From positions 1 through 38,035 of the forward strand of contig JBEVNG010000067.1 of the NCBI GenBank assembly GCA_040508235.1: 38,035 bases of DNA. The letters are read 5' to 3'. The position numbers and the translations under genes were made by a program. The DNA is from Polyangiales bacterium (lineage in GTDB: Bacteria; Myxococcota_A; Polyangia; Polyangiales; DASUME01). The notes beneath the pieces are model-generated. The model worked only from the letters and a program-made list of their open reading frames with translations, searched no databases and was not told where the DNA came from. This document shows positions 2,893 to 32,933 of the stretch, one piece after another. Every line of letters begins with the position of its first letter. The first letter of the stretch is position 1.

Positions 2893-2917
2893 ACACCCCG
2901 GTGGCTACCTGACTGAC

Positions 2918-17442: not shown

Positions 17443-17964
17443 TCAGGCGCGACCGAGCGTGAACTCGGCGGAAGCGATGCGCGGCTCGTCGGCGCGATCC
17501 TCCGAGAGCACGGCTTGAACCATCACGCGCTCCGGGTCGACGTGCTGGAGCGAGAGCGAGACCTTGAGCGGCGCACCGGCACGGTGGCTGCCTTCCAGCT
17601 TGGCTTGCGCACAGCCGACACAGCGCAGCTTGCGGTCGGTGACGGTGGAGATGCGATCGACCACCACACTCTCCATGAAGCTGAGCGCGGCACCGAGCGA
17701 GTCGATGTGCACGCTGGTGGGTACGGCCGATTGAGGTTGGGCGATCACCTGAGCTGCCTCACTGGCGGACATTCCGCTCTCACAGAGCTCGCGCATGCGC
17801 TTGACGGCATCCACGTCCTGCTTGCTGTACACCCGATAGCCCGAGGGGGTGCGGGCCGGCGTGGGCACCTGGTAGCGGCGCTCCCACGCACGGAGTGTAG
17901 CCTCGGGCACGCCCGTCTGCTCGGAGACCCAGTGAATGCGGTAGAGCTGACGGGGTTCGTTCAC
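17443..17964 (-). CDS. MerR-family regulator: CarA/CarH-like HTH plus a non-B12, hotdog-like C-terminal domain
   Basis: GTG 17964 overlaps the meaB TGA. YRIHWVSEQTGVPEATLRAWERRYQVPTPARTPSGYRVYS. 173 aa, with no W-x9-EH or E/DxHxxG B12 motifs. Confidence 0.82.
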   Translation of the reverse strand: MNEPRQLYRIHWVSEQTGVPEATLRAWERRYQVPTPARTPSGYRVYSKQDVDAVKRMRELCESGMSASEAAQVIAQPQSAVPTSVHIDSLGAALSFMESVVVDRISTVTDRKLRCVGCAQAKLEGSHRAGAPLKVSLSLQHVDPERVMVQAVLSEDRADEPRIASAEFTLGRA

Positions 17965-18908
17965 GGTGATTTGTTCTCGTGGGGAGCGAGCCTGGCCGAA
18001 AAATCCGCCTGCGCACGCTCGAAGTTGGTGCAGCGGCGAAGATACACCCCCGCACCGCCCTGCGCATCCAGCGCTCGCACCCCGGAGCGCCCCCACTCGT
18101 CGCGCACCCAGCGCTCGAAGAAGTACGGCTCACGCTCCCGGAGCGCCGGTGGCGTGCTCGCGCAGTCCTCGATCAGCCCGCGCGTGAGCTCGTCGATGCC
18201 GACGCCCGTCTTGGCGCTGGTGCGGTAGATGGGCACATTGTTGCCGTCGAGCGGCCGCGCCAGCCCGATGGTGCCGCGCAGCGTGTGGTAGCTGCGCTCG
18301 GACGACGGCTCATCGCACTTGTTGAGCACGAACGCGTGCGGCACCTCCATAATGCCGGCCTTGAGGAACTGGATCTCGTCGCCGCCGAGCGGCGCCATCA
18401 CCAGGTACACGCGGTCGGCCAGGTGACGGATGTCCGCCTCGCTCTGGCCGATGCCCACCGTCTCCACCAGCACGCAGTCGAACAGGTGCGCGAGCAGTCT
18501 GCAGACTTGGAAGCTCCACGGCCCGAGTCCCCCCAGCTCGGTGGCGGAGGCCTGGCTGCGGAAGAACGCGCGCCGCTCGTCGTGCGGCAGGTTCATGCGC
18601 GTGCGATCGCCGAGCAAGGCCCCACCCGAGATGTGCGACGACGGATCTACCGCGAGCACCGCGACCGAGAGCGAGGAGCCGGCGAGCAGCGACAGCGTGA
18701 CGCGCGCGAGGAGCGACGACTTGCCGGAGCCGGGCGTGCCGGTGAGGCCGATGACGACCGCGCACTTGCGCCCCTGCAGGCGATCGAGCACGTATGCCCG
18801 CTTCTCCACCGCCTCCGCGCGCTGATCCTCGAACAGCGAGACCAGCTGCGACACCGCGCGCTTCTCGCGCTGCAGCGCGCGCTCGATCAGTTCGTCTTCG
18901 GGCCTCAC
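17961..18908 (-). CDS. meaB: MeaB/ArgK GTPase chaperone of AdoCbl-dependent mutases
   Basis: GTPGSGKS, DPSS..GGALLGDRTRM, ETVGIGQSE, GDEIQFLKAGIME, NKCD, SAKTG. GTG 18908 overlaps the ecm stop. It is the C-terminal part of the 1516 aa track ORF. Confidence 0.93.
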   Translation of the reverse strand: MRPEDELIERALQREKRAVSQLVSLFEDQRAEAVEKRAYVLDRLQGRKCAVVIGLTGTPGSGKSSLLARVTLSLLAGSSLSVAVLAVDPSSHISGGALLGDRTRMNLPHDERRAFFRSQASATELGGLGPWSFQVCRLLAHLFDCVLVETVGIGQSEADIRHLADRVYLVMAPLGGDEIQFLKAGIMEVPHAFVLNKCDEPSSERSYHTLRGTIGLARPLDGNNVPIYRTSAKTGVGIDELTRGLIEDCASTPPALREREPYFFERWVRDEWGRSGVRALDAQGGAGVYLRRCTNFERAQADFSARLAPHENKSP

Positions 18909-20920
18909 GCCGCATCCTCCTCGAGCACGCTCACGATTGACTCCATGATCTGGATCAAGCTGTAGTCGGACGGCGTGAACACCTTGCGCACGCCCTTCGC
19001 GTAGAGCGCGTCGAAGTCGGTCTGCGGGATGATGCCGCCGAACACCACGCGCACCTTGTCGATGGCCTTGTGCTCGCGAAGCTGCTCCATGATCTGCTCG
19101 GCCAGCTCCAGGTGCGAGCCGCTCAACACGGAGGCGCCGATCAGATCCGCGCCTTCCTCGACCGCCGACTGCACGATCTCGTCGGGGCTGAGCCGGATGC
19201 CGGAGTAGATCACGTCGAAGCCGACGTGGCGCGCGGAGACCGCGATCACCTCGGCGCCGTTCGAGTGACCATCGAGGCCTGGCTTGCCAACCACGATGCG
19301 TGGGCGATGGCCGAGCTTGGGGATCAGCGACTCGATGCGGTGGCGCAGCTGGTCGACCTGATCGCCCTCCAGGCCGAGCCGCTGGCCGTCGATGCCGGTG
19401 GCCGGGCGATACTCGCCGAACACGCCGCGCAGCGTGCGCGCCCACTCGCCCGTGGTGACGCGCGCCAGGGCGCACTCGATCGAGGGCTCCATCATCGACG
19501 TGCCGTTGCGGGCCGCGTCTTGCAGCGCCGCGAGCGCGCGCTCCACACGCTTGGCATCGCGCGTCGCACGCGTGCGATTCAGGCTCTCCAGCGTCGCCTG
19601 GGTGGCGTTGGCGTCGAGCTTGAACAGGCCGCCGTCCGCGCCACCGAGCAGCGGCGAGGGGATGCCCTCCGTCCACTTGTTCATGCCCACCACGATCTGC
19701 TCGCCGGTGTTGATGCCGCGCATGCGGTTGGCCATCGAGCGCACCAGCGCCGACTTCATGTAGCCGGTCTCGATCGCGGTCTTCACGCCGCCCATCGCCA
19801 CGATGCGCTCGATCTCCTCGCGCGCCTCCTTCTTGAGCGCGTTCACCTTGGAGATCACCACCGGGCTGCCGTCGAACAGGTCCGGGTACTCCAGCAGGTC
19901 GGTCTCGTAGGCGAGGATCTGCTGCAGGCGTAGCGACCACTGCTGATCCCAAGGACGCGGCAAGCTGAGCGCCTCGTTCCAGGCCGGCAGCTGCAGCGCA
20001 CGACAGCGCGCGTTGCGGCTGAGCGTGACGCCGAGCGCCTCGATCAGGATGCGCCAGGCGTTGTTCTCCGGCTGGCTCTCGGTGAGGCCCAGCGAATTGA
20101 CCTGCACGCCGTAGCGGAAGCGGCGGAACTTGGGGTTCTTCACGCCGTAGCGGTCGCGCGTGATCTCCTCCCACATCTCGGAGAACGCGCGCATCTTGCA
20201 CATCTCCTCCACGAAGCGCACGCCCGCGTTCACGAAGAAGCTGATGCGCCCCACGATCTTCTCGAACTGATCGCCGCTGAACTTGCCGCGCTCCTTGATC
20301 AGATCGAGCAGGCCGATCGCGTTGGCCAGCGCGAACGCCAGCTCCTGCACCGGCGTCGCGGCCGCCTCCTGCAAGTGGTAGCTGCAGATGTTGGAGGCGT
20401 TCCACTCGGGCATCTCGATCAGGCAGAACTCGTACATCTCGGCGATGATGCGCAGGCTCTCTTCGGGCGGGAAGATGTACGTGCCGCGCGCAAGGTACTC
20501 CTTGATCAGATCGTTCTGCGTGGTTCCGTTCAGCTTCTTGGTGTCGATGCCGCGCTCGCGCGCCAGCGCGACGTACAGGGCGAGCAGCCACATCGCCGTG
20601 CCGTTGATCGTCATCGAGGTGTTCATCTTCTCGATCGGGATCTGGTCGAACAGCAGGTGGAAGTCGTCGAGCGAGTTGATCGGCACGCCGACCTTGCCCA
20701 CCTCCGGCAGCGCGATGCGGTCGTCCGAGTCGTAGCCACACTGGGTCGCGAGATCGAACGCGATCGAGAGGCCGGTCTGCCCCTTGGCCAGGTTCGAGCG
20801 ATAGAGCTCGTTGGACGTCTTGGGGCTGGAGTGTCCGGCGTAGGTTCGGAAGATCCAGGGCGGCTCGCGCGTCGGCTTGCCTTCTTTGTCGCGGATGACG
20901 TGCGCGTCGGGCGTGTCCAT
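18905..20920 (-). CDS. ecm: Ethylmalonyl-CoA mutase (MeaA), AdoCbl-dependent
   Basis: PWIFRTYAGHS..SNELYR.NLAKGQTGLSIAFDL, RFRYGVQVNSLGLTE.QPENN. The B12 motif is GLDGHSNG, the Ecm-type variant rather than the MCM-type DGHDRG. Confidence 0.92.
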   Translation of the reverse strand: MDTPDAHVIRDKEGKPTREPPWIFRTYAGHSSPKTSNELYRSNLAKGQTGLSIAFDLATQCGYDSDDRIALPEVGKVGVPINSLDDFHLLFDQIPIEKMNTSMTINGTAMWLLALYVALARERGIDTKKLNGTTQNDLIKEYLARGTYIFPPEESLRIIAEMYEFCLIEMPEWNASNICSYHLQEAAATPVQELAFALANAIGLLDLIKERGKFSGDQFEKIVGRISFFVNAGVRFVEEMCKMRAFSEMWEEITRDRYGVKNPKFRRFRYGVQVNSLGLTESQPENNAWRILIEALGVTLSRNARCRALQLPAWNEALSLPRPWDQQWSLRLQQILAYETDLLEYPDLFDGSPVVISKVNALKKEAREEIERIVAMGGVKTAIETGYMKSALVRSMANRMRGINTGEQIVVGMNKWTEGIPSPLLGGADGGLFKLDANATQATLESLNRTRATRDAKRVERALAALQDAARNGTSMMEPSIECALARVTTGEWARTLRGVFGEYRPATGIDGQRLGLEGDQVDQLRHRIESLIPKLGHRPRIVVGKPGLDGHSNGAEVIAVSARHVGFDVIYSGIRLSPDEIVQSAVEEGADLIGASVLSGSHLELAEQIMEQLREHKAIDKVRVVFGGIIPQTDFDALYAKGVRKVFTPSDYSLIQIMESIVSVLEEDAA

Positions 20921-20936
20921 GACCGATCAGCGTAGG

Positions 20937-21013
20937 TTTGCGAAGGTGCGCCGCCACCGGCAAAGAGGCGCCGATTTGCGAACGAAAGCGCGCCGCTTTG
21001 CAAAGTTTGCAAA
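20937..21013. promoter_or_regulatory. ScfR (RamB/PrpR/PccR) operator array between ecm and the regulator
   Basis: TTTGCGAA 20937-44 and 20975-82, CCGGCAAA 20957-64, perfect palindromes TTTGCAAA 20997-21004 and 21006-13. TTTGCAAA is the known PrpR/PccR site. Confidence 0.8.
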
Positions 21014-21050
21014 GCGAGACGGCGACCGTCTTTCGGGCTACAAGGCGGGG

Positions 21051-22460
21051 GTGACGAAGGCGTTCCTCGGTCCCCGATTGCGACGATTGCGCGAGGATCG
21101 CGGCCTCACCCAGAGTGCGGTCGCGAGCCAGCTCCAGGTCTCGGCCAGCTACTACAGCCAGCTGGAGGGCAACCAGCGGCCGCTCACGCCGGCGTTGATC
21201 TCGCGTATTGCGAAGACGTTCACAATCGAGGCGCAGTACTTCTCCGAGGAGGACGAGGCGCGCTTGTTGGTCGACGTACGCGAGGCGCTGGAGTCGTGCG
21301 CGCCCGACGAGCTGCCCTCCGCGAGCGAGCTGCGCGGGTTGGTGAGCGACACACCTCAGGTAGCGCGCGCGCTGGTGGCGCTGCACCGGCGTCATCGCAC
21401 CGCGGTCGAGCGAGCGGATGCGCTGGCCAGTCGCATCGGCGAGCGTGGTGCACCGAGCGACAGCGGCCTGCCGCTGATGCCCTACGAAGAAGTGCGCGAC
21501 CTGTTCTACAAGCGCCACAACTACATCGACGAGCTCGACACGCTGGCCGAGCAGATCGCCGACGAAGCGGGCCTGGTGCCGGGCGAGATGATCAAGCGCA
21601 TCACGCGCCGCTTGAAGGAGCGCGGCATCACGCTCGCGGTCGCCGAGGCCGGGCGCAACACGCCGCTGCGCCGCTTCGATGCCGCCAGCAAGACGCTGTG
21701 GCTCGCACCGCACCTGCAGCCCGGACAGCGCGCGTTCCAGCTCGCGACGCAGGTCGGCCTGCTCGAAGCGCGCGCGGTGATCGACCAGCTCGCCGGCGAG
21801 CCATCCACGGACGAAGCGCGTCGCCTTGCGCGCATCGGGCTCGCGCACCACTTCGCCGGCGCGCTGCTGATGCCGTACCGCATGTTCCTCGCGCGCGCGG
21901 AGGCGCTGCAGTACGACATCGACGAGCTGCGCCGCGAGTTCTCGGTTAGCTACGAGACCGCGTGCCACCGGCTGTCCACGCTGCAGCGGCCGAGCGAGCC
22001 CGGCGTGCCCTTCTTCTTCATCCGCGTCGACCGGGCCGGCAACGTCTCCAAGCGACAGTCCGCGACCGACTTCCACTTCTCGCGCGTGGGCGGCACCTGC
22101 CCGCTGTGGAACGTGTACGAGGCCTTCTCGCAGCCGTCGCGGATCCTGCGTCAGGTGGCACAGATGCCCGACGGCCGCTGCTACCTGTGGATCGCCCGCG
22201 CGGTCTCGCACTCGCAGGGCGGCTTCGGCGTGCCCAGCAAGACGCACGCGATCGGACTCGGCTGCGACCTGCGCCACGCCTCGCGCTTGATCTACGCGCG
22301 CGGCCTTAACCTCACGGATCCCGCCGCCGCCACGCCGATCGGCATGGGCTGCAAGGTGTGCGAGCGCCAGCACTGCCCGCAGCGCGCCTTCCCCTCGATC
22401 GGCCGCACGCTCGACGCGGACGAGAGCGTGTCCCGCTACGAGCCGTACGTCTCGCGCTGA
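21051..22460 (+). CDS. Short-chain fatty acyl-CoA regulator (ScfR family, RamB/PrpR-like XRE regulator)
   Basis: XRE HTH (FLGPRLRRLRE.RGLTQ..QLEGNQRPLT), HRLSTLQRP, RVDRAGNVSKR, GGTCPLWNV, C-terminal CKVCERQHCPQRAFP Fe-S motif. GTG 21051. Confidence 0.92.
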   Translation: MTKAFLGPRLRRLREDRGLTQSAVASQLQVSASYYSQLEGNQRPLTPALISRIAKTFTIEAQYFSEEDEARLLVDVREALESCAPDELPSASELRGLVSDTPQVARALVALHRRHRTAVERADALASRIGERGAPSDSGLPLMPYEEVRDLFYKRHNYIDELDTLAEQIADEAGLVPGEMIKRITRRLKERGITLAVAEAGRNTPLRRFDAASKTLWLAPHLQPGQRAFQLATQVGLLEARAVIDQLAGEPSTDEARRLARIGLAHHFAGALLMPYRMFLARAEALQYDIDELRREFSVSYETACHRLSTLQRPSEPGVPFFFIRVDRAGNVSKRQSATDFHFSRVGGTCPLWNVYEAFSQPSRILRQVAQMPDGRCYLWIARAVSHSQGGFGVPSKTHAIGLGCDLRHASRLIYARGLNLTDPAAATPIGMGCKVCERQHCPQRAFPSIGRTLDADESVSRYEPYVSR

Positions 22461-22500
22461 TCGTCTTGCATAGTAGACACGAGTTCGGTAGACCGCTGGC

Positions 22501-23274
22501 ATGAACAGCAAGGCGCAAACCGTGCGCGATCGCGTCGGCCCGGAGGAGTGGGCGCGGCGGGTCGAGCTCGCGGCTCTGTATCGTCTGACCGCCCTCTACG
22601 GCTGGGACGACTTCCTGGCCACGCACATCTCGGCGCGGGTGCCCGGACCGGACAAGCACTTCCTGCTCAACCCGCTCGGGTTGTGGTTCGAGGAAGTGAC
22701 CGCGTCGAACCTGGTGAAGATCGACCTCGACGGCAAGATCATCGACGGCGATCACGAGATCAACTACGCGGGCTTCGTGATCCACTCGGCGATCCACGCC
22801 GCACGCGAGGACGCGCACTTCATCGCGCACTTTCACACGGACGACGGCGTCGCGCTGTCATCGCAGAAGGACGGGTTGCTGCCGCTCAACCAGCGCTCGC
22901 TCGCGATCCTGCCGCGGCTCGCTTACCACGACTACGAGGGCATCGCGTTCAACCTCGACGAGCGCGAGCGCCTGGTCGCGTCGCTCGGTGACAGGAGCCA
23001 GCTGATCCTGCGCAACCACGGCACGCTCGCGCTCGGCGCGACGCCGGGCCAGGCGTGGAGCCGCATCTACGGCCTGGAGAAGGCGGCCTCCGCGCAGGTG
23101 CGCGCGCTCTCCGCGGGGCGCGATGGCGTGCTGATCGCACCGGAAGCCGCGCAGGAGGAGGTGCGTCGCCAGACCCAGCGCAAGCCGGGCGAGCGCGGCA
23201 ACGTGTACGAGGGCCTCGCCTGGGAGGCGATCAAGCGCAAGGTCGACCGCGACAGCCCCGGCTACGCGCAGTAG
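22501..23274 (+). CDS. Class II aldolase/adducin family protein
   Basis: THISARVPG, FEEVTASNLVKID, GFVIHSAIH, HFHT, LILRNHG. Confidence 0.9.
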   Translation: MNSKAQTVRDRVGPEEWARRVELAALYRLTALYGWDDFLATHISARVPGPDKHFLLNPLGLWFEEVTASNLVKIDLDGKIIDGDHEINYAGFVIHSAIHAAREDAHFIAHFHTDDGVALSSQKDGLLPLNQRSLAILPRLAYHDYEGIAFNLDERERLVASLGDRSQLILRNHGTLALGATPGQAWSRIYGLEKAASAQVRALSAGRDGVLIAPEAAQEEVRRQTQRKPGERGNVYEGLAWEAIKRKVDRDSPGYAQ

Positions 23275-23286
23275 TCTCGCTCGACC

Positions 23287-24633
23287 ATGTCCAGCCTGCA
23301 CGAGCTCGCCTTTCTGGGCGACGGCCTGATCACGGATCCGGAGGTGATCGAGGGCTATCGCCGCGATCGCACCACGTGGGCGGAGCCCGGTGTGCCGCTG
23401 GCTCTGGTGCGGCCTCGCTCCACCTACGAGGTGCAGGCGATCGCGCGCTGGTCGACAAAGCATCGTGTGCCGCTGGTCCCGCGCGGTGCGGGCAGCGGCA
23501 TCTCCGGCGGTGCGACGGCGAGTGACGGCGCGCTGATCGTGAGCTTCGAGCGCATGAAGCAGATCGTCGAGCTCGACTCGGTGGCGATGCTCGCACGTGT
23601 GCAGCCCGGCGTGATGAACGCGGAGCTGAAGCGCGCCGCATCCGAGCAGGGCCTCTGGTATCCGCCCGATCCGTCCAGCTTCGAGATCTCTTCGATCGGC
23701 GGCAACGTCGCCACCAACGCGGGCGGCCTGTGCTGCGTGAAGTACGGCGTCACCGCGGACTACGTGCTCGGCCTGGAGGCGGTCCTGAGCGACGGCAGCG
23801 TGGTGCGCGCCGGCAGCAAGAGCCGCAAGGACGTGGCCGGATACGATCTGACCAAGCTGCTGGTCGGCTCGGAGGGAACGCTCGCGCTGATCACGGAGGT
23901 CACCGTGCGGCTGCGTCGCAGGCCTCCGCCGTCGCGCACGCTGGTAGCCACGTTCGACACGCTGGAGACGTCGGGCGCCGCGGTGGCCGCGATCGTGCGC
24001 ACGGCGGACGCGTCGCTGCTGGAGATCATGGACCGTGCGACGCTGCGCGCGGTGGAGCGGCACGCGCAGCTCGGGCTCGATGTGGGCGCGGCGGCGATGT
24101 TGATCGCGCAGACCGATGCAGGCGACCGCGAGCTACAGCAGATCGCCGCTGCGTGTGAAGCGGTGGGCGGACGTGACCTGGTCGTCTCCGAGACCGAGAC
24201 GGAGAGCCGGTTGCTGTTGGCCGCGCGCCGGCTGGCGTATCCCTCGCTGGAGAAGCTGGGCGACGTCCTGGTGGACGACGTCGCGGTGCCGATCTCTCGG
24301 CTGGCCGAGATGTTCGCGCGCATCGAGCAGCTCGCGGCCCGCACCGGCGCGCACATCGCCACCGTCGCGCACGCGGGCGACGGCAACCTGCACCCGCTGG
24401 TGGTGTTCGACCGCCGCGACCCGCAGGACGAAGCGCGCGCGCTGTCCGTGTTCGAGCAGCTGATGGACGACGCGCTCGCGCTGGGCGGCACCATCACCGG
24501 CGAGCACGGCGTGGGCACCCTCAAGCGCCCCTACCTCGCCCGTCAGCTCGGCGAAGAGATGGTGGCGCTACAGCGCCGCATCAAGCTCGCGTTCGATCCC
24601 CACGGCCTGCTCAACCCCGGCAAGGTCCTTTAG
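23287..24633 (+). CDS. FAD-linked oxidase, GlcD / D-2-hydroxyacid dehydrogenase family
   Basis: PRGAGSG.SGG, PPDPSS..SIGGNVATNAGG..KYGVT, GSEGTL, HAGDGNLH, TGEHGVG, FDP.GLLNPGK. Confidence 0.9.
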   Translation: MSSLHELAFLGDGLITDPEVIEGYRRDRTTWAEPGVPLALVRPRSTYEVQAIARWSTKHRVPLVPRGAGSGISGGATASDGALIVSFERMKQIVELDSVAMLARVQPGVMNAELKRAASEQGLWYPPDPSSFEISSIGGNVATNAGGLCCVKYGVTADYVLGLEAVLSDGSVVRAGSKSRKDVAGYDLTKLLVGSEGTLALITEVTVRLRRRPPPSRTLVATFDTLETSGAAVAAIVRTADASLLEIMDRATLRAVERHAQLGLDVGAAAMLIAQTDAGDRELQQIAAACEAVGGRDLVVSETETESRLLLAARRLAYPSLEKLGDVLVDDVAVPISRLAEMFARIEQLAARTGAHIATVAHAGDGNLHPLVVFDRRDPQDEARALSVFEQLMDDALALGGTITGEHGVGTLKRPYLARQLGEEMVALQRRIKLAFDPHGLLNPGKVL

Positions 24634-25711
24634 AACGTCGCGCGAGCCACAGCGCGAGGATGAGCCAGGCCGCGCCGCCGCGCGAGTGCAAGGCACACCC
24701 CTCGGCGCTCGACTCGATGGGCAGAGCTTCGCTCATCATGCCCGCGTCGCCCGCGCGGAGGGCGAGTGCGGCCTTGGCATCGTCGCGCAGATCGACCCAG
24801 CGAGTGGTGCAGTCGGCGCGAGCGGTCTCGGTGAGGGTGCTGTAGTCCGGGTCTTGCAGACCGGCGACGGTGAAGAGCGGGTCGCCGAGGCCGCGCTCGT
24901 CCACGCGAAACAGGTCTCCGCGCGAGCATGCGTAGAGGGTGCCGTCGACCTCGCCGAGGCACGTCACGCGCTCCGCGGTCTCGATGGGCGTGCCGCTCAA
25001 CGTGCGCAGCTTCCCATCGACCGCGACCAGGTTGCCTGCGGGACCCGCGATGTCGACACTCGCTTCGAGTAGCGGTTCGTACGCGCCGTCGAGGATGCGC
25101 CCCAGCGTCACCCACGGCGCCGAGCGCCCATGCGTGACCACGTGGAGTTGTGCAGCAGCGATGCGGAGCTGGGCGCTGGCCACGTAGCTGGGTGCGGTCC
25201 AGGTGATCGTGCGCTGCCCGGTCTCCACGGTTAGCTCGCGGTCTTCGAAGCGAAGGGTCGACCCATCACCCGCGAGCGCGTCGACCGGTTGCGCGAGCGT
25301 CCGCACCAGCTCGTTGCTGGATGCAGTGACGCGGCGCAGCTCCCAGCGCCCTTCATCCTGGAACACGACCAGCACGGCGTCCCGCTGCGACGCCGCGGCG
25401 AAGCCGAGGCCCGACTGCACGGGATGGCGCGCGACGCGACCGTCCTGCCCCACCACGAACAGCTCGTCGCTCGCGACCAGGGCGGGTCCGAAGGACGGCG
25501 CCGCTGCCGGAGCGAGCACGTAACCACCCCACGACTCGGGGCACACGAAGCGAAAGCCGTCGCCAGAGCGGTGTGCGAAGCCACCCGGTGTCAGCCGCAC
25601 GAGGGCAGCACCGCGCGCGTCCAGAGCGAGCAGCTCCGTGGTGGCTGGGGGCGCGCCGTGCGCGAGCGCGCGACTCGTGAACAGCAGCAGGCCGACGAGC
25701 CAGAGCTTCAC
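24611..25711 (-). CDS. Secreted beta-rich protein with a MYXO-CTERM-like sorting tail
   Basis: Signal peptide ending ALA/HG. C-terminus GC-linker-hydrophobic-basic (EGCALHSRGGAAWLILALWLARR). GTG overlaps the protease stop. Confidence 0.75.
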   Translation of the reverse strand: MKLWLVGLLLFTSRALAHGAPPATTELLALDARGAALVRLTPGGFAHRSGDGFRFVCPESWGGYVLAPAAAPSFGPALVASDELFVVGQDGRVARHPVQSGLGFAAASQRDAVLVVFQDEGRWELRRVTASSNELVRTLAQPVDALAGDGSTLRFEDRELTVETGQRTITWTAPSYVASAQLRIAAAQLHVVTHGRSAPWVTLGRILDGAYEPLLEASVDIAGPAGNLVAVDGKLRTLSGTPIETAERVTCLGEVDGTLYACSRGDLFRVDERGLGDPLFTVAGLQDPDYSTLTETARADCTTRWVDLRDDAKAALALRAGDAGMMSEALPIESSAEGCALHSRGGAAWLILALWLARRSKGPCRG

Positions 25712-27165
25712 AGCTCGTCCGACGCGTGCAGCAGATCCTCGATGCGCAGCTTGGCGCCGATGCTGACCTTGCTGTCGCGGTAGAGGGCCTTGACCGCACC
25801 GAGGGCTTGAGCGCGCGTGAGCTGGTTCTCGCCGTGGAGCCAGAACATCGCGGTCGCGATCTGGAAGGCATAACGCTCGTAGAACGGCACCGTCCGGTAG
25901 TTCAGGAACAGCTCACGGACGCTCTGATTGTCGTACGACTCGACGGCGTAAGCGGCGAGGTACGAACCGATTGTGAAGTCGAGCCTGGGCTTGAAGCGAT
26001 CGAGGGTCGCGAGCAGGTTGGTGCGCGCGGCCTGCTCCCCCGCCGCCACGGTGTCGGAGAGCCCTTCCATCGAATAGGAGATCGCCGTCAGGTCGAGTGA
26101 GCCGTTGAAGCGCTGCTGCTTGTCCATCGCCGTCTGCAGGCGCTTGCTCCAAACGGCGAGCTCTCCACGCGGGCACTCCTTGGCGTTCTCCTTGTTCTGC
26201 GACAGCAAGTCGGTGCGACACTCGATGAACTCGAGGGCGGCGAAGCACGACGAGATCGCACCCTGAAACGCCTCGTACGACTCGTAGTCGTCGTACGCCA
26301 GCGCTTCGTCGCAGTCGGTGCCCAGCAGCCACGCCAGCGACACCGGCTGTCCGTCGACATTCGCCTTCCAGGTGTGCGCCGCCAGGAAGGCGCCGCTGTT
26401 CGCGAGCGCTTGGTCCGCACTCAGCGAGTCCGCGAGCGAGAACACGCTGGTCGGCAGCGGCGCAGCGAGGGCACGCTGCACATCCGCGCTCGCGCTCGCG
26501 ACCGCGGTCACCTCCGCGCTGGTTCGTGTCAGCAGGTCGAAGCCCTCCGCACCGCGATGCAGCAAGCCGACCAGCTGCCCCGCGTCGTCGAGCAACGGCG
26601 AGCCGCTGCCGCCGGGCAAGCTGAACACGCTGGCGTCGAACCACGTTCCATCCGCGCTCACCACGTAGCCCGACGACCACTTCTTGAGCCGCCCGAGTGG
26701 ATGGCCGATGGCCGTGACGTGCGTGCCGACCAGCTCGCTGGCCGTGCGCGGCGCCAAGGTGAGATGGAACGGCGTGTTGATGCGCTGGGTCTTCGCTTCG
26801 TCGAGGAAGATCTGCACCGCCGCCATGTCGAGTCCCACGTCGACGTGCTGCGGCACGGCCCACACGCCGCGCGGCGACAGCGCGAGCGTGCCGCGCTGGT
26901 ACTCGAAAGACAGCGCCACCGCGCAGCCTTCGCGCGCGCAGGTGTCGCCGCCGAGCACGTGCGCGTTCGTCAGCAGCAGGCCGTCCGGCGAGATGAACGA
27001 GCCCGTGGCGGACCCGCCGGCCGGGTGCTGGATGCGCACCACCGCCGACGCCGCCTGCTTGACCATCGCCGATGCGTGCTCGATGTCGTGCAGCTCCGGA
27101 GGAGCCGCGTTGGGCAGCTCCTCCGCGCACGCCACCATCAGGAGCGCGAACGCAAAGCGCTTCAT
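25708..27165 (-). CDS. Trypsin-like (S1) serine protease lipoprotein with an unknown Cys-containing helical C-terminal domain
   Basis: Lipobox LMVAC; ATGSFIS..GLLLTNAHV (His), GLDMA (Asp), LPGGSGSP (Ser). Confidence 0.88.
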   Translation of the reverse strand: MKRFAFALLMVACAEELPNAAPPELHDIEHASAMVKQAASAVVRIQHPAGGSATGSFISPDGLLLTNAHVLGGDTCAREGCAVALSFEYQRGTLALSPRGVWAVPQHVDVGLDMAAVQIFLDEAKTQRINTPFHLTLAPRTASELVGTHVTAIGHPLGRLKKWSSGYVVSADGTWFDASVFSLPGGSGSPLLDDAGQLVGLLHRGAEGFDLLTRTSAEVTAVASASADVQRALAAPLPTSVFSLADSLSADQALANSGAFLAAHTWKANVDGQPVSLAWLLGTDCDEALAYDDYESYEAFQGAISSCFAALEFIECRTDLLSQNKENAKECPRGELAVWSKRLQTAMDKQQRFNGSLDLTAISYSMEGLSDTVAAGEQAARTNLLATLDRFKPRLDFTIGSYLAAYAVESYDNQSVRELFLNYRTVPFYERYAFQIATAMFWLHGENQLTRAQALGAVKALYRDSKVSIGAKLRIEDLLHASDEL

Positions 27166-27166
27166 G

Positions 27167-28369
27167 TCAGTGGCAGTAGTTCTGGCCGAGCGGAATGGTG
27201 ACGCTCCAGGGATAGTTCCCGAAGTTGTCGAAGCTCTTCACGATGGTGTTGGTCATCGTGTCGATGATCACGACGCGGTTGGCACCGCTGACGGCAGCCA
27301 CGACGTACTTGCCGTCGCGCGTGGTGGAGGCGGTCTCGGTGTTTCCGCCGACGGGGATGCGGTCGCGCACTTCCATCGTCTCGGTGTCCAGCACCGCGAT
27401 ATCCTTGCGCACGCGGTTCATCACGAACGCCTTGTTCGGCGCCAGCGACGAGAAGTTCACGCCGTACGCTTCCTCGTCACCCGGCAGCGTGCCGATCACC
27501 GAGGGCTCCTTGGCGCCGTTGATCACGGACACGGTCTGGTCGCCGAAGTTGGTAACCACGTGGCGCAGCGGCACGTTGCTGAAGGGGTGCTCGGCGAACG
27601 CCACCCACGGCTTCAGGCCCGCCTTGAGCTCCGTGCGCTTGGTGCGCGACATGGTGTCGTACACGATGACGCGGCCGGTCTCGTGGTGCGCGGCGTACAT
27701 CACTCCCTCGCGATCGATCTGCACGTCGCCAAAGCCACCCTCCTCGGGTGCCAGCGTCTGGTTCGGCGGCACGTCGAAGCCGTCGAGCGCGACGTGGCCA
27801 TCGATCTCGAGCGACTCCAGGTTGACGCGCGTCACGTGGTAGGCACCGATGTTCGCGACGTAGCCGAACTTTCCGTCGGGCGAGAAGCGCATGAAGTGCG
27901 GCGTGAAGAAGCCGCCCAGGCGCTTGATCTCGGTGTCGGTGTTGGTGTCGATGAACGAGACCGCGCCGGTACCCTCGTCTTCGTCCATGACCGCGAGCAC
28001 GCCGCGGCCGTCGTTGTTGGTGATGTGCGTGGGGTGCTTGCCCAGCGCGACGCGCTTGAGCACGTCGTAGTTCTTGCTGCGCGTCAGCTCGAACGTGCGC
28101 AGATCGATCACGCCGATCTCACCCGAGTCGCGGCACACGATGTACGCGCGGTTGAGCAGACCTTCCGGCGTGTTGTCCATGCCAAAGCCCTTGGCATCCA
28201 GCACCACCAGCTCGTCCTTGTCCGAGTTGGTCAGGTACACCTTGGTGAAGTCGCTGTTCAGCTCCGCCATGTGCACGCCCGGGATGCCGAGCGGATCGTC
28301 GTCGTCCTTGTTCGCCGAGCAAGCGGCGAGCACGCCGAGGAGGAGGGCCCATTTGGTCGATGCAGTCAC
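27167..28369 (-). CDS. YVTN/YncE-type beta-propeller lipoprotein, His-rich, ending in NYCH
   Basis: GAGG RBS, GTG 28369, lipobox LAAC, repeated blades (PHFMRFSPDGKFGYVAN, IPVGGNTE). First gene after riboswitch 3. Confidence 0.85.
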   Translation of the reverse strand: MTASTKWALLLGVLAACSANKDDDDPLGIPGVHMAELNSDFTKVYLTNSDKDELVVLDAKGFGMDNTPEGLLNRAYIVCRDSGEIGVIDLRTFELTRSKNYDVLKRVALGKHPTHITNNDGRGVLAVMDEDEGTGAVSFIDTNTDTEIKRLGGFFTPHFMRFSPDGKFGYVANIGAYHVTRVNLESLEIDGHVALDGFDVPPNQTLAPEEGGFGDVQIDREGVMYAAHHETGRVIVYDTMSRTKRTELKAGLKPWVAFAEHPFSNVPLRHVVTNFGDQTVSVINGAKEPSVIGTLPGDEEAYGVNFSSLAPNKAFVMNRVRKDIAVLDTETMEVRDRIPVGGNTETASTTRDGKYVVAAVSGANRVVIIDTMTNTIVKSFDNFGNYPWSVTIPLGQNYCH

Positions 28370-28467
28370 GTGATCCTCACTGTCTGCTCGTGAGGAAGAC
28401 GGGCGCGCCGCCCCTGCAAAATAGGGCAACCGACGGCCACTCCGTTTCCCGCGGAGGCTATGCCGGT

Positions 28468-28575
28468 CGCATTGGGTAAGTCTCCTGGCTTGCGTGGAGA
28501 TACTCCACGCTCACAGTGGCGGAACCGCGCCGGACTTTAACCGGCTTCCTCGTTATGCCTCGCGGCACCCAAACG
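28468..28575 (-). ncRNA. Cobalamin riboswitch 3, short form
   Basis: Reverse complement: TTTGGGTGCCGCGAGGCATAACGAGGAAGCCGGTTAAAGTCCGGCGCGGTTCCGCCACTGTGAGCGTGGAG-TAT-CTCCACGC-AAGCCAGGAGACTTACCCAA. TTGACA lies upstream at 28617-28612. Confidence 0.9.
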
Positions 28576-28692
28576 ACGTTGTCGCGGGTGACTATCTCGT
28601 GCGTAAGGTGGTGTCAAGGTTCGCCGACATCACGCAAGGCAGTCAGCGTCCGCGATGAATGTCGCGCAGCAGCGCAGCAACGGCATGACTCG

Positions 28693-29418
28693 CTACAGCG
28701 TCCGCTCGGTCCAGGCTTTGTTGCGCTCGATGCGCTCGTCGTCCGTGATCAGCGGGCAGCTCACGCAGTAGTGGCCGCTGGGGACCTTGTAGTAGAGGCA
28801 GCAGCTGGCGCGGCGGTGGTAGACGCGGGTGACGTCGCAGTGCGTGACCTCGTACGCGTGCGGGGCGTTGGCGTCGTCGGCGAAGAACGCCTGGATCGTT
28901 TGCAAGACTTCGCCTGCGCGGCCGAGCGCGGTCAACACGGGCTCGAACTGCGCGGCCCACGACGACTCGACTTGTCCCCAGAGCGCCTTGCGGGGAAAGC
29001 GCGACCAGCGCGAGAGCGCATCCACCACGGGGAGCGACTGCGCGACCAACGTGGCGTGGGCGCTCAACGTCGACAGGCGCGGCTCGATCAAGCACACGCG
29101 CTCGAACAGCGCGCCGTTCGCGCTGAAGCGTAGCCATGTATTGGCGAGCGCCAGGTCCGGCACCAAGCCGGCGAGCAGGTGAGGACCGAGCGCGGCCGCG
29201 GAGGACCAGCCGAAGCGCAGCGCGAAGGAGGCGGCGATCACCTTACGGTCGCGGGTCTGCAGACGCTCGCCGATCTGAGTGAGCAGCTCGGCGAACGGAC
29301 CGCGCTCCGGCTCGGCGAAGGCGCCGCCCTCGATCCAACCCGCCCCGGCGGGCGTGCCGAGCTCGACGACCCAGCTCGGGTTGAGCTCGCGCAGGCGCTG
29401 GTAGCTCTCGCGCAACAT
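28693..29418 (-). CDS. FhuF-like ferric reductase / [2Fe-2S] protein
   Basis: C-terminal RRASCCLYYKVPSGHYCVSCP is the FhuF C-C-x10-C-x2-C motif. ATG overlaps the nrdB stop (TGATG). Confidence 0.85.
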   Translation of the reverse strand: MLRESYQRLRELNPSWVVELGTPAGAGWIEGGAFAEPERGPFAELLTQIGERLQTRDRKVIAASFALRFGWSSAAALGPHLLAGLVPDLALANTWLRFSANGALFERVCLIEPRLSTLSAHATLVAQSLPVVDALSRWSRFPRKALWGQVESSWAAQFEPVLTALGRAGEVLQTIQAFFADDANAPHAYEVTHCDVTRVYHRRASCCLYYKVPSGHYCVSCPLITDDERIERNKAWTERTL

Positions 29419-30434
29419 CAGAACGCGGCGTCGAGGGAGACTTCGCCGGTGACGGCGACCTGGTAGGCGGAGACGCGGCGCTCGAAGAAGTTGGTGACCT
29501 CTTGCACGTCCTGCAGGTCCATGAACGCGAGCGGGTTCTTGGCGCCGTAGCGCCTGGGCATTCCAAGCGTCTTCAGGCGCTGATCGGCGCAGTACTCGAG
29601 GTACGTGCGCACGTCGCGCACCGAGAGGCCCGCGATGCCGCCGGCTAGCAGGTCCTCGGCGAACTGCGTCTCGCACTCGATCGCCTCGTCGAGCATCTCG
29701 CCGACCTGCCGCTCCAGCTGGGCGTCGAACAGCGCAGGCTCTTCCTTGCGCACGGTCTCGATCACGTCGAACGCGAAGCGCATGTGCATGCTCTCGTCGC
29801 GGAACACCCAGCTGGTGCCGGCGGACAGGCCGTGCAGCATGCCGCGCGAGCGCAGGAAGTAGACGTAGGCAAACGCGCCGAAGAAGAACAGACCCTCGAT
29901 GCAGGCCGCGAAGCAGATCAGGTTGAGCAGGAACTGCCGGCGGTCGCCAGCGTCCTGCAACCGATCCTTGTCCTGCATGCTGTCGAGCCAGCGCATGCAG
30001 AACTCGGCCTTCTTGCGGATCGACGGGATGTTCTCGACCGCTGCAAAGGCGGCGTTGCGCTCGTCAGGGTCCGGTACATAGGTGTCGAGCAGCGTGAGGT
30101 AGAACTGCACGTGCAGCGCCTCCTCGTACAGCTGCCTGGACAGGTACATGCGCGCCTCGGGCGCGTTGATGTGCTTGTAGAGGTTGAGCACCAGGTTGTT
30201 GGCGACGATCGAGTCGCCGGTGGCGAAGAACGCGACCAGCCGCTGGATCAGGTGTCGCTCGGCCGGGCTCATGCGCGCGAGGTCGCGCACGTCCGTACCG
30301 AAGTCGACCTCCTCCACCGTCCAGGTGTTCTTGATCGACGAGCGATACAGCTCGTAGAACTGCGGATACGCCATCGGGCGCAAGGTCAGGCACAGCCCGG
30401 GATCGAGCAGGCGGTTGGGTCTCTGCACACTCAC
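29418..30434 (-). CDS. nrdB: Class Ia ribonucleotide reductase beta subunit
   Basis: FFATGDSIV, EEALHVQFY (radical Tyr), IEGLFF, RDESMH, TNFFERRVSAY. GTG overlaps the nrdA stop. Confidence 0.95.
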   Translation of the reverse strand: MSVQRPNRLLDPGLCLTLRPMAYPQFYELYRSSIKNTWTVEEVDFGTDVRDLARMSPAERHLIQRLVAFFATGDSIVANNLVLNLYKHINAPEARMYLSRQLYEEALHVQFYLTLLDTYVPDPDERNAAFAAVENIPSIRKKAEFCMRWLDSMQDKDRLQDAGDRRQFLLNLICFAACIEGLFFFGAFAYVYFLRSRGMLHGLSAGTSWVFRDESMHMRFAFDVIETVRKEEPALFDAQLERQVGEMLDEAIECETQFAEDLLAGGIAGLSVRDVRTYLEYCADQRLKTLGMPRRYGAKNPLAFMDLQDVQEVTNFFERRVSAYQVAVTGEVSLDAAF

Positions 30435-32812
30435 TGGCACGCCTCGCAGCTCTCGGGGTTTTCGAGCGAGCACACCACCGCCGCCGTCGCTTCCTCGCTG
30501 CTGGAGACGGTCGCCTTCGCGATCTTGGTCGCCGGCCGCGAGCGCAGGTAGTAGGTGGTCTTGAGTCCGCTCTTCCAGGCGTAGAAGTACATCGACGACA
30601 GCTGGCCGATGTTCGGGTTCTCGATGAACAGGTTGAGCGACTGGCTCTGATCGATGAACGCACCGCGCTCGGCGGCCAGATCGATCAGGGCGCGCATCGG
30701 CAGCTCCCAGGCGGTGCGGTACACCTTCTTGAGCTCCTCGGGCAGGCTGAGTCCCTGCACCGAGCCTTCCCCGAGCTTGAGCTGGGCGCGCGTGGCCTCG
30801 GTCCACAACCCGAGCTCCTTCAGCTCGGCGACCAGGTAGCGGTTCACCTGCATGAAGTCGCCGGACAGCGTCTCGCGCTTGAACAGGTTCGACACCTGCG
30901 GCTCGATGCACTCGTAGCAGCCAGCGATCGACGCGATCGTCGCGGTGGGTGCGATGGCGATCAGCAGCGAGTTGCGCAGGCCGTGCTCGCGGATCTGCTG
31001 GCGCAGCTGATCCCAGCGCTCCTGCTGCGACGGCACCACACCCCAGGCATCGAACTGCAGCTCACCACGCGCCGCGCGTGTCTCCGCGAACGACGGATGC
31101 GCACCCTTGGCCTGCGCGAGCTCCAGCGAAGCCGACAGCGCGTGATAGTAGACCTCCTCCGAGATCCGCCGCGACAGCGCGCGCGCCTCCGTGCTGTCGA
31201 ACGCCAGCCGCAGCTTGAAGAACACGTCCTGCAGGCCCATCAGCCCGAGGCCGACCGGACGCCAGCGGTTGTTCGACGCTTTGGTGGTCGCGATCGGGTA
31301 GTAGTTGAGATCGATCACCGCATCGAGCTGACGCACGGCCGTGCGCACGGTCGACGCCAGCTTCGCGAAGTCGAAGCCCTCGCTGCCCACGTGCCTTCCG
31401 AGGTTGATGGAGCCGAGGTTGCAGACCGCGGTCTCGTCGCCCGAGGTGACCTCCAGGATCTCGGTGCACAGGTTGGAGAGGTGCACGGTGCGACCGGGCA
31501 GCGCGGTCTGGTTGCAGGCCAGGTTCGACTTGTCCTTGAACGTGATCCAGCCGTTGCCGGTCTGCGCCAGCGTGCGCATCATGCGGCCGTACAGCTCGCG
31601 CGCATTGACCGTACGCTCGGCCAGCCCCGCGCGCTCCGCCTCTTCGTACGCCTCGTCGAACGCCGGTCCGTACAGGTCGCACAGCGCGGGCACACGCTTG
31701 GGATCGAACAGCGACCACGGAGCGTTCGCCTCCACGCGGCGCATGAACAGGTCCGAGATCCAGTTGGCCAGGTTCAGGTTGTGCGTGCGCGCGGACTCGT
31801 CGCCGGTGTTGTCGCGCAGCGAGAGGAACTCCTCGATGTCCGCGTGCCAGCTCTCCAGGTACACGCAGCACGCGCCCTTGCGCTTGCCGCCCTGGTTCAC
31901 CGCCGAGACGCTGGCGTCGAGCGTCTTGAGCCACGGCACGATGCCGTTGGAGTGGCCGTTGGTGCCCTGGATCAGCGAGCCGCGCGAGCGCACGCGGTGG
32001 TACGCCAGGCCGATGCCGCCCGAGAACTTCGAGAGCATCGCGACGTCGGTGTACGTGCGGTAGATCTGCTCCAGCGAGTCGTTCGGCGAGTCGAGCAGGA
32101 AGCAGCTCGACAGCTGCTCGTGGCGCGTGCCGGCGTTGAACAGCGTGGGCGAGCTCGGGATGTACTCCAGCGCCGAGAACAGGCGGTAGAGGTCGAGCGC
32201 GTCGCCGACGTTCTCGCTCAGCGCGCAGGCGATGCGCATGAAGAACTGCTGCGGCGTCTCCAGCACCAGGCGCGTCTTGGGGTGCTTGATCAGATAGCGG
32301 TCGTAGAGCGTGCGCAGACCGAAGTACTCGAAGTTCGCGTCGCGCTCGCCGTCGATGGCGTGGTCGAGCTTGCGCGCGTTGGCGCGCACGAAGTCGAGCA
32401 GCCTGTCGTTGATCAAGCCCGCTTCCGCCGCCGCGCTCACCGACTGCGAGAACGCGTGGATGCCCTGGTTGCGCACCTCCTTGTCGACGTACGTGGACAG
32501 CAAGCGGGCAGCCAGGCGCGCATACTCGGGCTCTTCCGCGATCAACGCGGCCGCGGTCTGGATCGACAGGCGATCGAGCTCGCTGGTGGTCGCGCCGTCG
32601 TAGAGGCCGCTGATCGTCTTGGTCGCGACGCGCAGCGCATCGACACCGGGCAGACCCGCGCAGCAGCGGTTCACCGCGCGCACGATCTTGTTGACGTCCA
32701 CCGGCTCCGGAGCCCCGCTGCGCTTGGTGACGCGCATGGTGCTCTGCGGATAGCCGGAGTCGCGCGCCGTCTCCCCGCGACGCGCCGTTGCCAGATCTCC
32801 CCCATTCAACAT
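30431..32812 (-). CDS. nrdA: Class Ia ribonucleotide reductase alpha subunit with ATP cone
   Basis: VTKRSG ATP cone, SPTLFNAG, LSSCF, SNLCTEI, VCNLGS, APTAT, DQSQS, KTTYYLR, C-terminal CEAC. AAAAGGAG RBS before ATG 32812. Confidence 0.96.
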   Translation of the reverse strand: MLNGGDLATARRGETARDSGYPQSTMRVTKRSGAPEPVDVNKIVRAVNRCCAGLPGVDALRVATKTISGLYDGATTSELDRLSIQTAAALIAEEPEYARLAARLLSTYVDKEVRNQGIHAFSQSVSAAAEAGLINDRLLDFVRANARKLDHAIDGERDANFEYFGLRTLYDRYLIKHPKTRLVLETPQQFFMRIACALSENVGDALDLYRLFSALEYIPSSPTLFNAGTRHEQLSSCFLLDSPNDSLEQIYRTYTDVAMLSKFSGGIGLAYHRVRSRGSLIQGTNGHSNGIVPWLKTLDASVSAVNQGGKRKGACCVYLESWHADIEEFLSLRDNTGDESARTHNLNLANWISDLFMRRVEANAPWSLFDPKRVPALCDLYGPAFDEAYEEAERAGLAERTVNARELYGRMMRTLAQTGNGWITFKDKSNLACNQTALPGRTVHLSNLCTEILEVTSGDETAVCNLGSINLGRHVGSEGFDFAKLASTVRTAVRQLDAVIDLNYYPIATTKASNNRWRPVGLGLMGLQDVFFKLRLAFDSTEARALSRRISEEVYYHALSASLELAQAKGAHPSFAETRAARGELQFDAWGVVPSQQERWDQLRQQIREHGLRNSLLIAIAPTATIASIAGCYECIEPQVSNLFKRETLSGDFMQVNRYLVAELKELGLWTEATRAQLKLGEGSVQGLSLPEELKKVYRTAWELPMRALIDLAAERGAFIDQSQSLNLFIENPNIGQLSSMYFYAWKSGLKTTYYLRSRPATKIAKATVSSSEEATAAVVCSLENPESCEACQ

Positions 32813-32933
32813 CTCGCGCTCCTTTTTCAGCCGCGAGAGGACGTGGTGAGACGGACGCACGAAGGGCGCCTCGATCGCACCCTTCCGCCCTCCCACGAGG
32901 CTCCTGGGTCATCGCGCGCCATCTCGACGCACG

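Follow-up and report, generated by a model that had tools for sequence, protein, structure and literature searches.

Beta-propellers are a standard example of how proteins evolve by amplifying repeats, and in the GyrA C-terminal domain the beta-pinwheel forms a propeller-like ring with changed strand connectivity in every blade. Designed circular permutants of propellers are reported to fold (PMC8458387). Non-cyclic permutations of protein domains are described as a known but rare category (PMC2096629, PMC10085705), of which PMC3863775 gives an HK97-fold example. The d1 domain of the cytochrome cd1 nitrite reductase NirS is eight-bladed, with His182, on an inner strand, serving as fifth ligand to the heme d1 iron (PMC7278500), and the BtuG propeller is described as binding vitamin B12 in its central cavity, with seven blades in BtuG2 (PMC10404256). 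Here we report on the gene of a lipoprotein with a YVTN/cd1-type beta-propeller that lies behind a cobalamin riboswitch in the Polyangiales assembly GCA_040508235.1, at positions 1 to 38,035 of contig JBEVNG010000067.1 (hereafter the window, meaning the whole 38,035-nt stretch that was analyzed). A reading of the window from its sequence alone had proposed that two adjacent segments of this gene, A and B, look swapped in frame through either an intragenic rearrangement or an assembly or sequence artefact. The explanation that we find best, and consider likely, is an in-frame transposition of B within an eight-bladed propeller that was kept in three dimensions.

Segment order in the window protein and its homologues

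The sequence-only reading had placed A at residues 26-60 (28294..28190) and B at residues 61-99 (28189..28073), and translation reproduced both strings and their coordinates exactly; in the translation of 27167..28369, NYDVLKRVALGKHPTH directly follows B (residue 99). Using hhalign, we aligned a profile of 42 sequences in A-then-B order (A-B; alignment A2) to one of 67 sequences in the opposite order (B-A; alignment A3), with P0049 as the B-A reference. Window residues 32-62 matched P0049 residues 78-108 with probability 100, a single 39-residue insertion occupied window residues 63-101 (nt 28067..28183), and the profiles were collinear again from residue 102 to the C-terminus. These breakpoints lie 2 residues from the boundaries first proposed, for which an uncertainty of a few nucleotides had been allowed. 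We use the resulting units below, namely unit A with strands A1-A3, unit B, and strand A4, which is split from A1-A3 by unit B in the window protein (Table 1). Unit A bears an invariant H33-M-A-E and sits right behind the lipid tether in the A-B clade, and in other family members unit B is, by motif order, the first structured element behind the signal peptide. The C-terminal strand and GQNYCH tail are the same in both forms.

Segment order was classed by motif positions in 120 listed homologue clusters, one of which is the window's own protein (P0002, an identical 400 aa). HMAE stood 41 residues ahead of RAYIV in 42 of these, the window's own entry included, and P0045 was also A-B by its B-to-HPTH spacing of 38, giving 43/120 in A-B order. 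RAYIV preceded HMAE by 33 residues in 70 clusters and four more were B-A by a spacing of 73 (74/120), while three were uninformative fragments (P0033, P0038, P0052). Order tracked similarity rank exactly, with A-B in P0002-P0046 (58-100% identity) and B-A in P0047-P0121 (52-62%). The B-A consensus (…NRAYIV…VIDL..LEIIGRV-PTGGVxNHMAELNADFTKVYI…VVVDAxx-FEVIKRI…HPTH) has the regular repeat order of strand 1 xHxxx, strand 2 xxYVxx, strand 3 xxVxD and strand 4 xVxxxIxxG, and the HMAE strand was invariant in both groups. The B-then-A order that had been predicted as canonical therefore exists, both in the 74 listed homologues and in distant relatives with recognizable motifs. The homologues nevertheless gave a divided answer, as the distant members support a swap but the close ones share the A-then-B order of the window. 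A-then-B order in homologues together with a confident fold of the given sequence had been named as what would speak against a swap, and the close homologues literally present both; only deeper homologues reveal the exchange.

Local alignment of the window segments to 20 B-A proteins put A 33-40 residues downstream of B in 16/20, and the four exceptions were very distant members with scores near the shuffled range. A scored 62-112 in the 11 closest B-A proteins and B scored 55-80 (shuffled maximum 33-46). Both MAFFT and BLASTP hide the swap by laying A onto B as repeats and forcing a collinear alignment, because strands 2 and 3 of A and B align mutually. This mutual homology also makes it conceivable that nothing moved, and that neighboring repeats drifted or were gene-converted into their present state, or that A-B is ancestral and B-A derived. 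We hold this to be very improbable. The scores of A in the 11 closest B-A proteins stand against a shuffled maximum of 41 and include the non-repeat strand HMAEL, and hhalign returns a clean 39-residue block with no mosaic. An ancestral A-B order is further opposed by the distant relatives, which are B-A where motifs are recognizable, by the regular four-strand order of B-A, and by a tree that nests A-B within B-A (see below).

We also ran a whole-library phmmer search, which gave 4244 hits at E ≤ 1e-3, and inspected 32 representatives of roughly full length after clustering at 50% identity. A C-terminal ..YCH/..YCR or near variant (..FCH, ..HCH) was present in 30 of the 32, and 28 of those 30 are B-then-A as far as motifs can be recognized, down to about 27% identity. 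The A motif was not recognizable in P0198 and P0143, which have the YCH-type ending, and P0131 (B-then-A) and P0196 have other C-termini. Among fragments of the representative set, P0146 (160 aa) is A-B and P0153 is B-then-A. The secreted propellers of about 400 aa in P0122-P0250 (27-57% identity) form a much wider family with a C-terminal ..(N)YCH and a conserved PHM inner strand, and many of them are not lipoproteins.

Presence of the A-B order in the DNA

Contigs from three sequencing runs in two studies covered the junctions, and no joints were reported in them. In run X2, a 413-nt contig extends over 27973-28385 with 0 differences, crossing all three junctions, and two overlapping contigs of run X1 cover the junction region. 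Run X13, from another study, contributed a 5297-nt contig in which 27801-28599 is covered with 34 differences plus a single 1-nt insertion. Because the source sample may be X1 itself, the independent support comes from X13 and the database clusters. The A-B clusters come from JGI, ENA, NCBI and Logan sources, and four species-representative genomes in which the N-terminus can be read (L002, L004, L006 and L007) also had the A-B order; they are labeled Polyangiales, Polyangiaceae, Sorangium and, in one case, 'Pseudomonadota' metagenome-assembled genome (MAG).

The source genome is itself a fragmented MAG (571 contigs, 72% complete), and repeat-rich genes are prone to misassembly, both of which would favor an assembly or sequencing artefact in the contig. 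The second option of the sequence-only reading is nonetheless excluded by the independent contigs and by the 43/120 listed clusters of several sources, which share the order with the four species-representative genomes, and we assign it a negligible probability. The jointless passage of the contigs across the junctions, the lack of DNA repeats there, the open frame, and the conservation of order-specific residues all speak against it as well.

The CAAG noted at the end of both segments is present in the DNA, but it is only the Lys codon AAG after a C at the boundaries chosen in that reading. No DNA repeats were found at the junctions, and the repeat search gave only short chance repeats elsewhere. 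Microhomology at the breakpoints was rejected, CAAG being trivial and junction repeats lacking.

Predicted fold and connectivity

We ran AlphaFold2 (AF2) with group-specific alignments, with the B-A order represented by the natural orthologue P0049. Both orders gave a confident eight-bladed propeller with 32 strands in each model. The window form reached a predicted local distance difference test score (pLDDT) of 88.7 and a predicted template modeling score (pTM) of 0.86, with residue blocks 31-110 at 91-95 and residues 1-24 below 50, and P0049 reached a pLDDT of 91.1 and a pTM of 0.87. In the window model unit B comprised one helix (H68-72) and three strands (E74-79, E85-89, E94-98) at pLDDT 93-95.

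The best VIA-align matches of both models were eight-bladed, namely cd1 nitrite reductase, Rsa4 and the designed propellers Bagel8, Tako8 and Cake8 (Z 28-37.6, root mean square deviation 2.2-2.9). On cd1 chain 1hj5_A, the window model aligned 313 residues (Z 29.9, 26..397 to chain 192..567) and the B-A model 345 (Z 37.6, 34..402 to chain 157..561); on cd1 chain 1nir_A the numbers were 310, from chain residue 176, and 345, from chain residue 139. Bagel8 (8prj) gave 286 aligned residues for the window model (28..394 to chain 28..321) and 313 for the B-A model (44..401 to chain 2..321). On Tako8 (6y7n_A), 288 residues of the window model (chain 8..301) and 296 of the B-A model (chain 1..301) were aligned, and over Tako8 and Cake8 together the ranges were 286-288 and 295-296. 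The window form loses only about one strand on these last two targets, whose chain ends leave out two strands even in the B-A form. Strand A1 maps to the same target place in both models, and about one three-strand unit of the window form drops out of a sequential alignment. With 27-35 fewer residues of the window model aligned on Bagel8 and cd1, the pattern is unlike a plain sequential meander. It would be expected if the residues before A1 keep their place, A4 structurally follows A1-A3, and the B strands are out of sequence.

A kept three-dimensional fold with rewired connectivity, that is, a non-cyclic permutation, is on these models the probable arrangement. Strands A1-A3 would still pair with A4, and B would still complete the closing blade with the C-terminal strand. 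Rewiring would affect only three connections: the tether would lead into A1, a new GxDxS linker would join A3 to the B helix, and B4 would run on to A4 along the rim. The sequence-only reading had left blade A without a fourth strand, a claim that we abandon, as NYDVLKRV is most likely still its fourth strand and merely comes after the inserted B unit. The segment order itself is changed in a non-circular way, with a 39-residue block displaced between the two groups of the 120 listed homologues and the same C-terminus in both. Circular permutation was rejected, since the lipobox signal peptide and the ..GQNYCH tail are in place in both forms.

The models could also be read as an ordinary sequential meander in which A1-A3 take positions 2-4 of the closing blade and B2-B4 take positions 1-3 of the next, so that homologous segments would sit at changed radial positions. 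All linkers between consecutive strands other than A3-to-B have four residues and are hairpin-like, strand-direction parity favors a plain meander, AF2 confidence is uniformly high, and the VIA-align model ranges begin at residues 26-28, all of which suits such an exchange of slots. It fails to fit the shortfall of 27-35 aligned residues in the window model (Bagel8 286 vs 313; cd1 310-313 vs 345), the start of that model 26-37 residues later in the Bagel8 and cd1 chains, and the invariant H-M-A-E strand of both groups, which argues for a kept position in three dimensions. We judge the exchange of slots to be unlikely.

Several points weigh against the rewired, permuted propeller that we prefer. 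The VIA-align ranges mark just the two end residues of each alignment, and we assumed a strictly sequential aligner. That B pairs with the C-terminal strand, and A3 with A4, is read solely off alignment ranges and lengths. The link from B4 to A4 has four residues (KNYD), which is enough only where consecutive outer strands follow one another head to tail. Such a roughly head-to-tail course of outer strands from blade to blade around the rim is general propeller geometry. In the permuted arrangement the entry of the tether would have moved from the B helix to the invariant-His strand A1, which may alter how the propeller faces the membrane.

Direction, number and age of the change

We built an IQ-TREE tree from the columns for residues 111-400, the collinear part, with 63 rows, for which we took one in two A-B sequences, one in three B-A sequences and 19 distant ones and omitted fragments and two over-long proteins. 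All 21 A-B rows fell into one starred clade (Shimodaira-Hasegawa-like approximate likelihood ratio test 95) together with 8 B-A rows, and this clade was nested several starred nodes deep within B-A proteins. The A-B order is, on this phylogeny, derived from B-A. A tree in which the A-B rows were held together was 7.7 log-likelihood units better than the free search (approximately unbiased test p 0.658), so that a single origin of A-B appears compatible with the data and was not rejected. The A-B proteins have diverged to 58% identity, and the event should therefore be old. Judged from these sequences, the swap is ancient and common to a clade of soil myxobacteria (43/120 listed clusters), and not peculiar to this genome. 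With both orders extant and A-B nested in B-A, the proposal of a frame-preserving intragenic rearrangement held up.

In the change that we envisage, the 39-residue block B, which is the helix and strands 2-4 of the first, velcro blade, would have moved in frame in the ancestor of one Polyangiales lineage. It would have left its place behind the lipoprotein tether and entered the next blade (A plus A4) in the hairpin that joins strands 3 and 4, turning a chain of tether-B-A-A4-rest into tether-A-B-A4-rest. The moved block brings about 8 residues of the former N-terminal tether with it (…S/T-x-E-A-L-L-N-R-A-Y in both forms), and unit A brings the G-V that precedes HMAE. Permutations usually arise through tandem duplication (here B-A-B-A), after which the outer copies are lost in frame. 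The duplication route, by which A-B may have arisen, would need three events, and no DNA-level trace of the origin is left. A search for a B-A paralogue as recombination partner found just one copy of the gene in the 72%-complete MAG.

Some of the evidence runs counter to a single transposition. The A-B rows did not form one clade in the free tree, which had 3 changes and unresolved forks. The tree was itself computed from a subsample in a "quick" search; its outgroup branches are long and many of its forks unresolved. Intermediates (B-A-B-A or A-B-A) were absent from the 120 listed homologues by motif positions, and a word-based search with residues 26-112, which is weak evidence, returned 26 proteins, all of them known A-B forms, from 70 candidates.

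Family assignment and gene neighborhood

The window protein scored above cut-off with Pfam PF21783, YNCE-like (48.8 bits vs 27.1), and with PF02239, Cytochrom_D1 (30.8 bits vs a gathering cut-off of 25.5). The TIGR02276 YVTN repeat reached 58.7 bits (cut-off 27.85) spread over three stretches. It thus belongs by score to the YVTN repeat proteins (TIGR02276) and PF21783, and, with the predicted eight-bladed fold, to the proteins with a cytochrome d1 domain. The NCBIfam YncE equivalog was not reached (24.6 bits vs a cut-off of 400), and YncE proper, which is seven-bladed, was rejected because the predicted models hold 32 strands and align best to eight-bladed propellers. The YVTN and cytochrome d1 families therefore include the window protein by score and YncE proper does not, eight blades being predicted against seven. 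The predicted lipid anchor, Cys17, was invariant across alignments A1 and A2. In the ESM Atlas we found matches only to generic lactonase/YncE propeller clusters and no structure of the window protein.

Table 1 Features of the propeller gene and its surroundings in the window
Feature	Coordinates	Strand	Details
Propeller gene	27167..28369	minus	400 aa/codons, GTG start at 28369; open reading frame (ORF) and translation
Signal peptide and lipobox	28319..28369	minus	Residues 1-17, …VLAAC; read from sequence; Cys17 the predicted lipid anchor
Unit A	28184..28279	minus	Residues 31-62; blade strands 1-3 GVHMAEL / KVYLTN / ELVVLD; hhalign; AF2 E34-37, E43-48, E53-58, pLDDT 91-95
Unit B, putative transposed block	28067..28183	minus	Residues 63-101; linker GMDNT, short helix PEGLL, strands RAYIVC / IGVID / ELTRS; hhalign 39-residue insertion
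Strand A4	28040..28066	minus	Residues 102-110, DVLKRVALG, fourth strand of blade A; matched by hhalign to EVIKRIPTG in the B-A form; AF2 E103-108
C-terminal closing strand and tail	27170..27214	minus	Residues 386-400, YPWSVTIP and GQNYCH; invariant columns Y386..H400; AF2 E387-391, E396-399
Cobalamin riboswitch aptamer	28458..28586	minus	Rfam RF00174, 60.3 bits (gathering 31.5), E 8.8e-14; 89 nt upstream of the propeller gene
Trypsin-like peptidase lipoprotein	25708..27165	minus	Lipobox …LMVAC; PF13365, E 4.4e-20; begins 1 nt past the propeller stop
366-aa protein	24611..25711	minus	No Pfam match; after the peptidase gene, co-directional
nrdA and nrdB (class I ribonucleotide reductase), then 327-aa ORF	28693..32896	minus	327-aa ORF with FhuF-type C-terminal 2Fe-2S motif; ends just upstream of the riboswitch

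A same-strand cobalamin riboswitch lies upstream of the propeller gene in 31/34 related genome loci, which is all of the 31 that could be assessed, as the other three (L003, L018, L032) have just 0-91 nt of upstream DNA. The family looks like a core member of the myxobacterial B12 regulon. The riboswitch-headed loci (31 among L002-L035) are nearly all from Myxococcota, with one Planctomycetales-labeled MAG. Genes upstream of the riboswitch are unrelated between loci. In one of them (L017:1136-1339, minus) there is, on the other strand and about 1 kb upstream of the propeller's own, a second cobalamin riboswitch (87 bits) that points at what may be a divergent B12-regulated unit.

Downstream content differed between the two forms. 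Genes for Peripla_BP_2 (BtuF-like), FecCD and/or an ATP-binding cassette (ABC) ATPase followed in 12/16 B-A loci scanned (L005, L008, L009, L010, L014, L015, L020, L025, L026, L031, L033 and L035), and three other B-A loci had a PepSY_TM protein instead (L016, L027, L028). In L016, a Deltaproteobacteria-labeled MAG, a CbiX (cobaltochelatase-type) ORF at 2151-3392 (plus) stands between riboswitch and propeller gene. The peptidase gene and the gene for the 366-aa protein follow the propeller gene in the window and in L002 and L003, the closest relatives (59-66% identity) and the only ones to keep the pair. A cyclase and a GH25 gene follow in L006 (A-B), and in L007 (A-B) the downstream ORFs tested had no Pfam match.

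An inverted repeat at 28369..28401 (minus; 12 nt, 83%) was considered as a ribosome-binding-site hairpin, and folding of 28355-28460 was not significant (z -1.0). Through this repeat, the Shine-Dalgarno GAGGA and the GTG start could base-pair with a UCCUC stretch further upstream. At their 5' ends the nrdB and nrdA ORFs are too long as listed, which is to be expected in a high-GC genome. MeaB is a G-protein chaperone of B12-dependent mutases. A MeaB domain at residues 1221-1446 makes the long ORF 17961..22511 (minus), probably over-extended or a fusion, another B12-related one.

Likely function

An extracytoplasmic lipoprotein that would be repressed by B12 and heads a corrinoid-type ABC operon suggests, most simply, a part in corrinoid capture or hand-over. 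We arrive at this accessory role because the riboswitch was found in all assessable loci and BtuFCD-type genes stand beside most B-A forms. The invariant inner-strand His residues and the terminal Cys-His would fit cofactor ligation. A range offset that puts window residue 28 on 1nir_A residue 176 places H33 about one residue away from NirS His182, an approximate correspondence that is suggestive only and not at residue level. The equivalent ligand in the Paracoccus enzyme is His200, and the 1hj5_A offset gives 199. A profile search of the Protein Data Bank for residue-level equivalence to cd1 aligned only YVTN repeats, with NirF and NirN in other regions and no cd1 chain.

Two things count against a corrinoid role. 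It is drawn entirely from gene context and fold, and BtuFCD-type genes were found beside none of the A-B forms (0/5 A-B loci with downstream DNA). The riboswitch itself is retained in the A-B clade. A connection between the shift of the tether and the loss of the BtuFCD linkage is speculation. The widest construction would combine a natural non-cyclic permutation within a propeller with a new myxobacterial corrinoid-capture class on a heme-d1-type scaffold, in which H33 and the C-terminal Cys-His are ligands and the swap re-oriented or re-purposed the binder. As a whole we regard it as doubtful.

If the permutation is real, this is a natural orthologue pair that differs by a non-circular block move and would test a change of connectivity without a change of fold, and methods of topology-independent alignment and structure predictors could be benchmarked on it. 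The pair is also a warning to annotation pipelines, as MAFFT and BLASTP silently give a wrong collinear alignment here. The riboswitch and BtuFCD context suggests that B12 acquisition in Myxococcota has an extracytoplasmic component that has gone unstudied.

Comparison with known systems

In searches of the open-access literature, neither a propeller with a non-cyclic permutation nor this riboswitch-linked family turned up as described, and no paper there links YncE, cobalamin and riboswitch together.

Cytochrome cd1, with NirS, NirF and NirN, is the closest system by structure. It was the best structural match of the B-A model (Z 36-37.6, 344-346 residues aligned, root mean square deviation 2.5-2.8). 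Heme d1 propellers combine an eight-bladed fold with tetrapyrrole binding, and the window family shares the predicted eight blades and a PF02239 score above gathering. Identity is only 13-17%, however, and the window protein is without a cytochrome c domain. Unlike the heme d1 propellers, the window family is a lipoprotein under a cobalamin riboswitch instead of a denitrification gene, has a C-terminal ..NYCH, and shows the rearranged order in the window's clade.

BtuG of Bacteroides resembles the window protein in being a lipid-anchored propeller behind a B12 riboswitch, here with lipobox VLAAC and RF00174, and in its occurrence in loci that, in the family here, would serve corrinoid uptake. 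There were weak profile matches to 8bai, 8baz, 8bmy and others (E 6e-5 to 9e-4) at query positions 123-260 only, and Foldseek listed BtuG2 and BT1954 as well, at ranks 44 and 47. BtuG2 has seven blades, whereas eight are predicted for the window protein, and the likeness is at the generic level of YVTN repeats. The neighbors here are of the BtuFCD ABC type; no adjacent TonB-dependent BtuB was identified, in the course of work that did not include a systematic search for BtuB. The window protein is not a demonstrated member of BtuG.

As in known non-cyclic permutations, the segments keep their sequence and apparently their place in three dimensions, and the chain order is changed with no circular shift. 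In contrast to those cases, both orders are extant in one orthologous family with the same riboswitch context, and what moved would be a three-strand propeller block. In circular permutants, velcro variants and the beta-pinwheel, the chain ends move or every blade is rewired; here one internal block appears to have moved by half a blade.

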